From: Opitutales bacterium
GTDB taxonomy: Bacteria; Verrucomicrobiota; Verrucomicrobiia; Opitutales; JABSRG01
DNA: 64,000 nt
Direction: 5' to 3'
Assembly (NCBI GenBank): GCA_028280845.1
Contig: JANQKZ010000032.1
Span: forward strand, 74,490 to 138,489
Below the pieces are notes generated by a model that was not told where the DNA came from, did no database searches, and saw only the letters and a list, made by a program, of their open reading frames with translations. This document shows, piece by piece, positions 4,556-50,294 of the stretch (positions are counted from its first letter, which is position 1; every line of letters begins with the position of its first letter). A program made the position numbers and the translations under genes.

Positions 4556-5371
4556 TTAAAGCCGGGGAACCGTAAGTCCACCGTCGACCAGAATCACCTG
4601 ACCGGTCGAGTAGGGAAAATCTCCCCTCGCCAGCGAGGCGACGACCTTTCCACTATCACCGGGCTCTCCCCAACGGGGCTGCAGGCATAAGCCTTCTTCA
4701 ATCATTTTGTCATATTTCTCTGCCACCGCGGAGGTCATATCCGTGCGCGTCACGCCCGGGCGCACTTCATAAACCGGGATGCCCTCTGCTCCCAGGCGGA
4801 CAGCAAAGACTTGAGACATCATGGCAATCCCCGCTTTAGCTAAACAATATTCTCCGCGGTTGATGCTCGCCAGGGTAGCCGAGATGGAACCAATGTTGAT
4901 GATCTTCCCCTCAAAGCTGGAGTCGGCCTGCTTCGCGGCCACCATCTGGTTCGCAATGGCCTGGGACAAAAAGAAGGCCCCTTTCAGGTTGATGTCCATC
5001 ACCCGGTCATAATTTTCCTCGGTCGTTTCGAGCACATCGAGGCGCTGCTTGGGGGCGACCCCAGCATTGTTGACCAGAAGATTCAGGGCACCTCCGGCAA
5101 AGCCCTTCACGACAGACAGGATCGCCTCGCGGCCCTCCGCTTCACCAATATTCCCCTGCGCATAGGTCACCTCCACGCCCAGGGCTCTCAACTCATCCAA
5201 CACAGGCTGCACATCGGCCGCTGCCCGCATCCCGTTAATGACCAGGCCCCACCCCTCAGCGGCCAATGCCCGTGCAATCCCCAAACCAATCCCACGGCTC
5301 CCTCCGGTTATCAGGGCAAATTTTGGTCTTTTGTTTTTCGTTTGTTGTGTCTCGTTTTCTGGACTACTCAT
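4556..5371 (-). CDS. Short-chain dehydrogenase/reductase (3-ketoacyl-ACP-reductase-like, probably sugar-acting)
   Basis: TGGSRGIG, NNAG, catalytic YCLAK, VDGG; last gene of the GH88 operon. Confidence 0.92.
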   Translation of the reverse strand: MSSPENETQQTKNKRPKFALITGGSRGIGLGIARALAAEGWGLVINGMRAAADVQPVLDELRALGVEVTYAQGNIGEAEGREAILSVVKGFAGGALNLLVNNAGVAPKQRLDVLETTEENYDRVMDINLKGAFFLSQAIANQMVAAKQADSSFEGKIINIGSISATLASINRGEYCLAKAGIAMMSQVFAVRLGAEGIPVYEVRPGVTRTDMTSAVAEKYDKMIEEGLCLQPRWGEPGDSGKVVASLARGDFPYSTGQVILVDGGLTVPRL

Positions 5372-5806
5372 TAATATATCAAATTGGGAGGTGGTAATAT
5401 GGGAACGTTTACTCGATTCGAAGATATTGAAGCCTGGAAAGCGGCTCGGGAGCTGAACAAGAGTATCTACTCGATATCTGGATCAGGATCCTTTGCAAAA
5501 GATTTTGCCTTGAAAGAACAGATACGACGGGCCGCCATTTCAATTAGCTCCAATATCGCGGAGGGGTTTGGGAGGAATTCATCAAAGGAGTTCAAAAATT
5601 TTTTAGGATATGCTTCTGGCTCTGCTAATGAGGTTCAAAGCCAACTTTATTTAGCGCTCGATCAGGGTTATCTCACGAAGACCGACTTCAAGTCCATTGT
5701 AGAGGATGCTGAAAGAACTAAGAAGCTGATCGGTGGACTCATTCACTATCTCAATAGAAATTGATTAGTAGAGAAACGAACGGCAAAGAACGATAAACTA
5801 AAAACC
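5325..5806. mobile_element. Putative inserted cassette: four-helix-bundle gene between inverted five-heptad arms
   Basis: Arm 5325-5359 (GGTCTTT TGTTTTT CGTTTGT TGTGTCT CGTTTTC) and arm 5772-5806 (AGAAACG AACGGCA AAGAACG ATAAACT AAAAACC) are imperfect reverse complements in register; interior is AT-rich and antisense to the operon. Mobility is inferred. Confidence 0.6.
5399..5764 (+). CDS. Four helix bundle protein (23S rRNA IVS protein / bAvd-like family)
   Basis: FEDIEAWK, QIRRAAISISSNIAEGFGR, ASGSANEVQSQLYLA; Shine-Dalgarno GGAGGT at 5387-5392. Confidence 0.93.
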   Translation: MGTFTRFEDIEAWKAARELNKSIYSISGSGSFAKDFALKEQIRRAAISISSNIAEGFGRNSSKEFKNFLGYASGSANEVQSQLYLALDQGYLTKTDFKSIVEDAERTKKLIGGLIHYLNRN

Positions 5807-5819
5807 AGTTGGCAATCTC

Positions 5820-6965
<1,146 letters not shown>

Positions 6966-49401: not shown

Positions 49402-49433
49402 ATAATAGCATCCCGCATCCATGACAAAAAGGG

Positions 49434-49496
49434 TATTCGATCTCCGACCACCGACCATCCGCCATCGACAATTCACCATCGACCATCGACAATCAA
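49434..49496 (+). repeat. Nine tandem degenerate heptads (consensus CCATCGA)
   Basis: TATTCGA TCTCCGA CCACCGA CCATCCG CCATCGA CAATTCA CCATCGA CCATCGA CAATCAA, ending 3 bp before ATG 49500. Confidence 0.8.
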
Positions 49497-49499
49497 GGC

Positions 49500-50153
49500 A
49501 TGCTCAAACTCACCTACTATCTCGATGTCGTCTCCTCCTGGTGTTTCTACGCGGAAGATACTTGGGCAGAGCTAAAGGAGTTTTACGAAGACTTGGCTAC
49601 TTTTGAATGGAAGGTATCCCTGATCCCGCCAGCAGGCCTTCCCAAGTCGCGGGAGGAAGAGGAATATTATTATCGCCGGAGCGGAACTACGGTCCGCTGG
49701 CAGACTATGCTGAACGGGGCCTGGTTGAATCCCGAAGTGGAGGAATATCTGGTGCCCAACGCCGTCGCAGAGGCAGGAAAAGACTTCGGAATCACCGATG
49801 ACCGAATTCGCTTAGCCCTTGCTCACGCTGCCATGGTGGAAGGCCAATCCATCTGGGATTGGAAGGTCGCCGCAGGTGCTGCTGTTACAGCCGTGGACCT
49901 TGATCAGGAAGCCCTGCTGGAGACAGCCCGGTCCCAGGAGATCGAAGATCGGGTCCGGGCTTCTACCCAAGCGTTCGACAATCTCCAGGTCAATCAACGC
50001 CCTACCTTTATCATTGAAGATGAAATCGGGGATCGTGCCGTCTTCTCCGGCCTCATCCACCTGGACCCGTTGGTGTCGACCATTGAGTCCATGATCGAGG
50101 ATTGCCAGGCCTACCGTGCCTACCACGCCCACCATGGCGAGTGGCCGGCTTGA
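49500..50153 (+). CDS. DsbA/FrnE-like thioredoxin-fold protein with SxxC motif
   Basis: YYLDVVSSWCFY and cis-Pro loop QRPTF. Confidence 0.8.
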   Translation: MLKLTYYLDVVSSWCFYAEDTWAELKEFYEDLATFEWKVSLIPPAGLPKSREEEEYYYRRSGTTVRWQTMLNGAWLNPEVEEYLVPNAVAEAGKDFGITDDRIRLALAHAAMVEGQSIWDWKVAAGAAVTAVDLDQEALLETARSQEIEDRVRASTQAFDNLQVNQRPTFIIEDEIGDRAVFSGLIHLDPLVSTIESMIEDCQAYRAYHAHHGEWPA

Positions 50154-50193: not shown

Positions 50194-50294
50194 TTCCCCC
50201 TCAATACCATCTCCCTATGCACAAATGCGAAATTTATTTCCCGAATTCGATTTAGCGGATTTGATTTCGTATTTAATATGATAAGGTTTTTTGT

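Follow-up and report, generated by a model that had tools for sequence, protein, structure and literature searches.

A four-helix-bundle gene bracketed by inverted heptad arms

The DNA analysed here is a stretch of 64,000 nucleotides (nt) from contig JANQKZ010000032.1 of an Opitutales bacterium (assembly GCA_028280845.1), referred to as the window, and all coordinates without a contig name are positions in it. The window contains a small gene for a four-helix-bundle protein of 121 amino acids (aa) (5399-5764, plus strand), which is bracketed by two inverted arms (5324-5368 and 5767-5807) and lies antisense between two genes of a minus-strand operon. Gene and arms together are termed the cassette, and this example of it the study copy. 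On the operon strand, it is preceded by a Gfo/Idh/MocA oxidoreductase gene (Gfo; 5820-6965) and followed by a gene of the short-chain dehydrogenase/reductase (SDR) type (4556-5371), the 271-aa product of which matched adh_short and NF009386 (340 bits). A xylose-isomerase-like TIM-barrel gene (AP_endonuc_2) was found further upstream in the operon.

The open reading frame (ORF) at 5399-5764 matched PF05635 (23S_rRNA_IVP) over 105 of the 106 profile positions (E 3.4e-35, 120.9 bits, cut-off 33.8) and TIGR02436 (‘four helix bundle protein’; E 2.7e-33, 114.4 bits, cut-off 24). Solved relatives of the protein are 2GSC (E 1.3e-14) and 2RLD (E 1.9e-7), with five chains in each PDB entry, an indirect hint, like the citation of Lin et al. 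(2006) in PMC4990558 and PMC10053308, of a putative pentameric ring assembly. Six residues are invariant in an alignment of 22 family sequences (A1, Q34, S41, N45, E48, and E71, numbered on the first sequence, which starts at window position 5420). A Shine-Dalgarno-like GGGAGGTGG was read from the sequence at 5386-5394 (plus strand), where a GGAGGT ends 6 nt 5' of the ATG. The GC content is 43.2% for the ORF and 41.1% for the whole cassette, compared with 58.2% for the SDR gene, 57.4% for the Gfo gene, and 55.7% for the window. Profiles, base composition, and sequence thus agree with a preliminary description of the window, which had pointed out an AT-rich four-helix-bundle gene with its own GGAGGT, antisense between Gfo and SDR.

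The left arm consists of five degenerate heptads (5325-5359) and an inner CTACT (5364-5368), while the right arm, which lies 3 nt past the stop codon of the gene, consists of an inner AGTAG (5767-5771) and five further heptads (5772-5806). A repeat search returned an ungapped pair of 34 nt with 74% complementarity (5324-5357 and 5774-5807), and a gapped alignment carried the match to the inner CTACT/AGTAG pair. Compared unit by unit, 24 of the 35 heptad positions match between the two arms. Every left-arm unit has G at position 2 and T at position 3, and every right-arm unit has C at position 6. The local inverted-repeat score of 33 lies far above that of mononucleotide shuffles (mean 17.1, sd 2.4, z ~7), and it was reached by only one of 1500 random loci of the same geometry in the same genome (a score of 25 by 11). 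The inverted five-heptad arms with their inner pair, as first described, are therefore real and pair better than composition-shuffled controls. Their 7-nt periodicity is only moderate: the lag-7 identity of 0.61 in the left arm was reached by 178 of 5000 shuffles, and that of 0.50 in the right arm by 464 of 5000, with lag 10 giving 0.52. The study copy is a degenerate example of the design.

The PF05635 gene is the only family-matching ORF between the arms. No transposase and no target-site duplication were seen at the study copy, in agreement with the preliminary description as regards the former, and only a TTGG of 4 nt recurs outside both arms, which is within chance. The four operon proteins that were profile-scanned (PF05635, SDR, Gfo, and AP_endonuc_2) did not include a reverse transcriptase; no search was aimed at this enzyme or at template and variable repeats. 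A contig from a separate study spans 5586-5795 (210 nt) with five differing letters, and all three of the differences listed are synonymous third positions, which hints slightly that the gene is under purifying selection. Contigs of four DNA runs gave no empty, inverted, or length-variant form of the cassette; an identical copy was present in a second run of the same study.

Insertion into the Gfo-SDR junction and capture of the SDR start

The left arm lies in the reading frame of the SDR gene. The ATG at 5371-5369 (minus strand), on the inner edge of this arm, is the sole usable in-frame start before the glycine-rich motif: no other in-frame ATG, GTG, or TTG occurs 5' of TGGSRGIG, and the next candidates are codons 30 and 36. 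SDR codons 5-16 correspond to the left arm, and, with the inner CTACT included, 5324-5368 make up codons 2-16. The first 17 residues are in this way encoded by the cassette, and the NF009386 profile begins at residue 14.

To place this in context, orthologous junctions were compared. Of 40 relatives, 16 have a Gfo ortholog, and in 12 of these the SDR ortholog comes next. No cassette interrupts eight of these 12 junctions, all of them short: the aligned gene ends lie -14 to 33 nt apart in six (L013, L016, L018, L019, L025, and L026) and slightly further apart in two (L017 and L023). The SDRs at these junctions have 7-13 residues before the TGG motif, typically M-K-P-V-A-L-I. The study SDR has 21 residues there and its ortholog in genome G022 has 28; these two longest N-termini are exactly the two with an in-frame arm. 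Because the junctions of relatives are tight and empty and their SDR N-termini short, the study cassette is an insertion, and the SDR start together with the next 16 codons is cassette-derived. The extension also tracks with the cassette, since only the study copy and G022 combine a long N-terminus with an in-frame arm. Readthrough of the arm adds 17 hydrophilic residues to the SDR, the original start of which was lost to the insertion. The preliminary description had held that the arm encodes an atypical SDR N-terminus and had suggested looking for empty sites in related genomes. Codon positions and the junction comparison confirm both points, as empty sites exist and cassette-free orthologs do not share the N-terminus.

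The gene-plus-arms design is widespread

The same genome contains 11 family matches (E ≤ 0.001), nine of which have flanks with inverted-repeat scores of at least 25, and the arm sequences vary from copy to copy. Within the order, the family was detected in 31 of 61 genomes, including the one studied here, with 127 matches at E ≤ 1e-10. An order set was assembled from the best-scoring copy of each of 29 other genomes (29 of 118 matches) and the 11 matches mentioned above; after one locus with a short flank (L044) was dropped, 39 loci remained. Arms were present at z ≥ 3.5 in 31 of these 39 loci, with a best period of 7 in 23, 8 in four, and 6 in four.

A second set was collected across phyla using a five-sequence subfamily alignment and one genome per species, and it covers the subfamily of the study protein. 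At least 559 relatives were confirmed among 600 candidate stretches, and the best 80 of them (47-58% identical) were analysed, three being dropped for short flanks (n = 77). The best 80 span more than 15 phyla, including Spirochaetes, Planctomycetes, Acidobacteria, Chloroflexi, Nitrospirae, Bacteroidota, Verrucomicrobia, Thermotogae, and Bacillota. Of the 77 loci, 65 scored 25 or more, with a period of 7 in 47, 8 in 10, 9 in seven, and 10 in one, and the median arm length was 33 nt (interquartile range 29-41), that is, about five units. Inverted arms, which the preliminary description had proposed to look for, are accordingly a regular companion of homologous genes. Phage sequences gave no match to the 121-aa protein at E ≤ 1e-5; 13 of 72,556 plasmid records, mostly cyanobacterial, matched it, which points to no obvious vector. 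A copy on a Nostoc plasmid carries no annotation beyond ‘four helix bundle protein’; arms of the same design enclose it, and its two neighbouring genes are co-directional.

The units of the cross-phylum arms share a core. Trinucleotides recurring in phase in the upstream arm of the 65 loci were most often GTT (36 loci), AGT (25), TTC (17), GGT (16), and GTC (16). The upstream arm has three or more in-phase occurrences of GTT or GTC in 52 of the 65 subfamily loci, versus 4 of 23 loci of other PF05635 subfamilies in the order. In the left arm of the study copy, GT is in phase in all five units. The remaining unit positions and the unit length (7, 8, or 9) vary across subfamily loci. A plain stem constrains complementarity and not identity, so a core kept across proteins that are only ~50% identical argues for sequence-specific recognition. 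This pattern in the aligned arms suggests that they are recognised by sequence, beyond pairing alone.

Orientation relative to neighbouring genes

The orientation of the cassette gene was compared with that of its neighbours in 87 contexts (30 from the order set and 57 from the cross-phylum set), each neighbour being the longest ORF of at least 90 aa, a crude call made without homology check. Between co-directional neighbours, the gene was in the sense orientation in 49 cases (14 order, 35 cross-phylum) and antisense in 13 (six and seven). Convergent neighbours accounted for 22 cases (10 and 12), and divergent neighbours for only three, all cross-phylum. In 71 of the 87 contexts, the host gene before the cassette gene thus runs in the same direction, which fits a unit riding on host transcripts, like an intervening sequence (IVS) in rRNA. 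Cross-phylum arms usually touch the neighbouring ORFs, with median gaps of 3 and -1 nt. The study copy, antisense to its operon, represents a minority state (13 of 62 between co-directional neighbours).

Repeated occupancy and turnover in relatives

The Gfo-SDR junction has been occupied more than once among the relatives. In G003, it holds a decayed copy of ~200 nt that is sense to the operon and has an arm unit of its own (GCTTAAT type); directly after the arm, the SDR gene keeps its ancestral start. In G022, a sense copy retains the C-terminal half of the gene alone, and its arm unit equals the outermost unit of the study copy; the remnant matches the C-terminus of the study protein at 47.7%, the second-best match among the loci compared. 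Since the arms form an inverted repeat, an inversion between them and an insertion in the opposite orientation would leave the same arrangement, and the study copy and the G022 remnant may go back either to one old insertion or to independent insertions. The 436 nt in the G010 junction (L021) have no family match; they include a hairpin with perfectly paired 14-nt arms and an alternative start that would lengthen the SDR. In G005, which belongs to the same family, the junction is empty, and two sense cassettes are found at the next two junctions of the orthologous operon. The G005 cassettes (L058, G005:C27:21000-30500) have arms of the GTTCGGG/GAACGCC type and an array with 11 copies of TGGAGGC, and 5 kb from them a third family gene adjoins a period-14 array.

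Two cassette sites were also compared between G037 and G064, which belong to the same genus. At site 1 of G037 (L218, G037:C1:3988000-3993400, local 2320-2973), a complete cassette is nested within another cassette's gene: the sequence on its two sides matches residues 64-126 and 1-35 of a close paralog, and residues ~36-63 of the outer gene are missing. The inner arms are of the TTAAGTG/TTAGGTG type and the outer arms of an 8-nt type, GTCAAAAG. In G064, site 1 retains one outer array beside another, gene-less inverted repeat. Site 2 holds arms and gene in G037 and a gene-less arm pair on a 21-nt loop in G064. The same site can thus hold a cassette with its gene in one genome and a gene-less arm pair or a solo array in the other.

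Hairpins were observed next to several of these elements. In G037 (L218 and L219) and G064 (L231 and L233), arms or arrays directly adjoin gene-end host hairpins that are present in both genomes. The right arm of the study copy likewise abuts a hairpin (5807-5835, minus strand; 13-nt arms, 92% complementary, 3-nt loop) that spans the Gfo stop codon (5820-5822), and on the operon strand GGTTTTT, the outermost arm unit, follows it. A terminator scan did not call this hairpin. Such positions make hairpins possible preferred insertion targets. A separate dispersed palindromic repeat of ~35 nt brackets the cassette-adjacent gene in L218 (local ~1003-1040, 1114-1148, and 2265-2300); dozens of copies of it, 90-100% identical and in either orientation, are present in G064.

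Heptamer arrays across genomes

Tandem repeats of the study genome were surveyed with Tandem Repeats Finder (TRF). At a score of at least 50, period 7 accounted for 47 rows and period 14 for 29, with 0, 1, and 1 rows for periods 6, 8, and 9. Arrays of at least three copies numbered 129, and most of them have no family gene nearby. The commonest units were GTGTCTA/G (23 arrays) and CGGAGGT / CCGACTT / CCGATTT (21 arrays), and these two unit families are the arm units of two PF05635 paralogs (C37:13480-13941 and C42:65176-65873). Pairing of arrays by TRF unit gave only four inverted pairs, two of them around family genes; degenerate arms escape TRF. Single-linkage clustering of the array units chained 125 of the 129 arrays into one cluster and was discarded.

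Samples of ~200 kb were compared from four PF05635-rich and four PF05635-free genomes of the order. They contained 6, 2, 22, and 2 period-7 arrays versus 0, 0, 6, and 1, respectively, which is only a trend, with G030 as a clear exception. The arrays of genome G030 (L189-L198, G030:C2) have units such as GTTCAAAG, GGTCCTT, and GACCAAA, and two units often stand side by side, not as inverted pairs. Within the window, a CGACCAT-type array of ~7 copies (49421-49499; G000:C17:123934-123983 in TRF) runs directly up to the start codon (ATG) of a 217-aa ORF (49500-50153). It has no visible inverted partner, and a period-14 repeat lies downstream at ~50236-50268. Several contigs of the study genome open with long heptamer arrays (C2:12-117, C5:6-88, C29:5-95, C17:229-298, and C18:225-297). 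Counts of arrays and cassettes are lower bounds, since heptamer repeats probably break the assembly.

A proposed transcript-level cassette and alternative explanations

The predicted minimum free energy and centroid folds of 5318-5812 close the cassette through its arms on both strands. The operon (minus) strand reached -113.7 kcal/mol (z -2.68), and none of 100 shuffles folded as well; the plus strand reached -131.9 kcal/mol (z -1.28), equalled by 11 of 100. Rfam gave no match within 5000-6100 at E ≤ 1.

On balance, and with some reserve, we favour the reading that the element is a widespread, horizontally dispersed PF05635 insertion cassette that combines a stem at the transcript level with arms read by sequence. 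Such a cassette would consist of a PF05635 gene tightly bracketed by inverted arms, each of about five tandem units that are usually 7 nt long. The study copy was inserted between Gfo and SDR, once tightly joined in a sugar-catabolic operon, at the cost of the original SDR start, and the SDR now initiates at the ATG on the inner edge of the arm and reads through it. In a transcript of either strand, the arms may pair and close the cassette as a long stem-loop, in the layout of the ORF-bearing rRNA IVS. With this stem-loop, host transcripts could tolerate the insert, and the gene would usually be carried along by host transcription. The GTT/GTC core, kept at its fixed spacing across phyla, is probably read by sequence, and the most plausible reader is the cassette's own oligomeric protein.

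A bolder version, which we consider unlikely but worth stating by analogy, is that PF05635 proteins are rings that bind repeat arrays. Each subunit of a pentamer would read one of the about five units, as G-T/U-Y triplets (Y, pyrimidine) 7 nt apart, much as TRAP reads spaced triplets, and each subfamily would have its cognate units. The cassette would then be a selfish element recognising itself and seeding, using, or leaving behind 7-nt arrays, with the rRNA IVS merely its best-known landing site.

Whether the arms are selected as RNA was assessed from arm mismatches that can still pair as G-U on the sense versus the antisense strand. The 65 cross-phylum arms had 2037 Watson-Crick pairs, 97 G-U pairs on the sense and 59 on the antisense strand, and 182 transversions (p 0.003), and the 31 order arms had 883, 36, 43, and 79, respectively (p 0.50). 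This wobble test thus gives a mixed picture, with an excess of sense G-U pairs in the cross-phylum set and none in the order set. RNA-level selection is only suggested, since deamination would give the same skew.

Several observations weigh against the transcript-level reading. The order set has no sense-strand excess, and the cross-phylum excess could equally stem from C-to-T deamination of the non-template strand. The study gene cannot ride on host transcription, as it is antisense to the operon, and a sigma-70 scan of 5100-6000 found no promoter, with a single terminator-like site that is unrelated. Among the clear cases, the arms of the study copy are the most eroded (74-75% complementary). 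Because the predicted stem leaves the SDR ATG on its loop side, cleavage of the stem by RNase III would part the SDR ORF from its start codon. Efficient excision at the study copy is argued against by this decapitation of the message and by the erosion of the stem. The orientation counts depend on crude neighbour calls, and the shared core may come partly from co-inheritance of gene and arms. Arrays of at least three copies in the study genome number 129, against 11 family matches, and 200 kb of G030, a genome in which PF05635 matches nothing even at E ≤ 1, contain six period-7 and seven period-8 arrays, so arrays do not need a PF05635 gene.

Part of this evidence would suit a purely DNA-level element, with arms serving as substrates for recombination or for hairpin or cruciform formation, a gene that is copied between existing arrays through homologous recombination or gene conversion, or is mobilised in trans by a host enzyme, and RNA pairing that is incidental. 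Besides the wobble counts of the order set (36 vs 43), transversions are as common as transitions in the arms, and the arm units of the C37 (GTGTCTA) and C42 (CGGAGGT / CCGACTT) paralogs are the commonest arrays elsewhere in the genome. The gene-less arm pair at the orthologous site in G064, the cassette nested within the gene of another, and the opposite gene orientations of the study copy and G022 in the same junction are also readily accommodated. We nevertheless regard this account as rather unlikely. The bias towards the sense orientation (49 vs 13) and the rarity of divergent contexts (3 of 87) suit a transcript-level logic better, as does the sense-strand wobble excess across phyla (97 vs 59). 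The study copy has neither a visible target-site duplication nor a transposase, and recombination between arrays cannot account for the first arrival at a site without arrays.

The transcript-level cassette must also be set against a role in the host. The preliminary description had inferred that the arms sequester the SDR start, so that processing or protein binding would tune SDR expression, which would make the cassette a domesticated regulatory device. SDR codons 5-16 do lie inside the stem in both predicted folds, and the arm of G022 is also in the SDR frame. Against this, eight of 12 syntenic relatives have a tight junction without the cassette, cassettes of the same type occur at unrelated junctions in many phyla, and those of G003 and G022 are decaying in this very junction. 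With the ATG loop-side, cleavage would destroy the message instead of tuning it; in the modelled folds, an RNase III cut in the stem would amount to damage to the SDR message and not to regulation. A regulatory role of the arms for SDR expression is not supported, and we hold it to be quite improbable. That there is no element at all, and that ordinary slippage-prone heptamer arrays happen to flank a small AT-rich gene, is disfavoured and very improbable indeed. Period 7 does dominate the tandem repeats of the study genome, but the arms are inverted copies matched by only one of 1500 random loci, 31 of 39 homologs in one set and 65 of 77 in the other are bracketed in the same way, empty junctions occur in relatives, and the core motif is specific to the subfamily.

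Relation to known systems

PF05635/Avd-like proteins are very common, and to our knowledge a function is known for them only within diversity-generating retroelements (DGRs). Heptamer tandem repeats have long been noted as an excess in bacterial genomes without explanation, and rRNA IVS have been regarded as a curiosity of rRNA. The cassette ties these three together, since the same gene-plus-arms unit is found in ordinary operons across many phyla and is gained and lost between close relatives. It yields hypotheses that can be tested, namely, for the protein, binding to its own arms and, for the element, tolerance at the transcript level and its mode of spread. For annotation, it implies that the starts and termini of cassette-adjacent genes can be arm-encoded.

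Repeats with a comparable organisation are known from REP/REPIN (repetitive extragenic palindromic sequences and their paired forms) and RAYT (REP-associated tyrosine transposase) systems, in which inverted copies of a short element lie on both sides of a single gene and further copies are scattered through the genome without it. The paralogs whose arms share the commonest array units resemble this relation of RAYT gene and REPIN. Unlike RAYT, the study protein is a small four-helix bundle without a transposase fold, its flanks are tandem short-period arrays, not one palindrome, and G030 has arrays without the gene. Among heptamer repeats, the STRR (short tandemly repeated repetitive) sequences of cyanobacteria are a further example.

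Published heptamer arrays include the abundant GGGAATC arrays of Xanthomonas, with 70-75 convergent pairs (PMC4692102), and the TAACTGA repeats of Beggiatoaceae and cyanobacteria (PMC4679880). As far as described in the sections of these papers considered here, the cassette arms resemble such arrays in their 7-nt units, in having ~4-6 units per array, in their intergenic position near gene ends, and in their rarity between divergent genes, and they share with the Xanthomonas arrays the frequent nearby inverted pairs. The cassette arrays differ from them in forming a matched inverted pair around one gene family. The terms ‘S23’ and ‘four helix’ do not occur in the available text of either paper, nor does ‘intervening’ in that of PMC4692102 or ‘intervening sequence’ in that of PMC4679880, and neither text links heptamer arrays to a gene family. 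In the full-text literature, supplementary tables excluded, no paper was found on PF05635 genes with short-period inverted arms outside rRNA.

The DGR protein Avd (PDB 4DWL) has sequence and structural homology to 2GSC, the PF05635 representative, according to the relevant passage of PMC10053308, which substantiates the relation stated in the preliminary description. The PDB entries related to the study protein hold five chains, which is a further likeness to the Avd family. Short-period inverted arms such as those of the study cassette are not known to be part of the DGR design.

The 23S rRNA IVS of Coxiella burnetii, inserted in helix 45, carries an S23p ORF and is excised by RNase III, and its inverted repeats are of unexplained origin; three tandem heptamers, whose number varies among strains, lie upstream of the ORF (PMC4990558). 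Further ORF-bearing 23S IVS are cited there from Leptospira, Brucella, and Xanthomonas. To the extent that this source describes them, they share with the cassette the ORF family (S23p = PF05635), the position of the ORF in the loop of an inverted-repeat stem without a transposase, and a sporadic distribution that suggests horizontal transfer. The tandem heptamers adjoining the ORF in Coxiella likewise have their counterpart in the five degenerate heptads per arm of the study copy.

There are also clear differences. The study copy sits between the coding genes for SDR and Gfo and not inside a 23S rRNA gene helix, its gene is antisense to the host transcript, and one of its arms is translated as the N-terminus of a neighbouring enzyme. 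Excision by RNase III has been demonstrated for the Coxiella IVS, as reported in the same part of PMC4990558, whereas for the study copy it is at most putative. The study gene has a strong Shine-Dalgarno sequence, whereas the Coxiella ORF is described there as probably not expressed. The arm-encoded start and N-terminus of a host enzyme, the antisense orientation, and a junction colonised repeatedly in relatives are local peculiarities of this copy. ORF family, enclosing stem repeat, heptamers, and empty junctions all agree with the IVS-like inserted element of the preliminary description. The element is an IVS-type cassette outside rRNA, and its closest published kin are the ORF-bearing intervening sequences of 23S rRNA.

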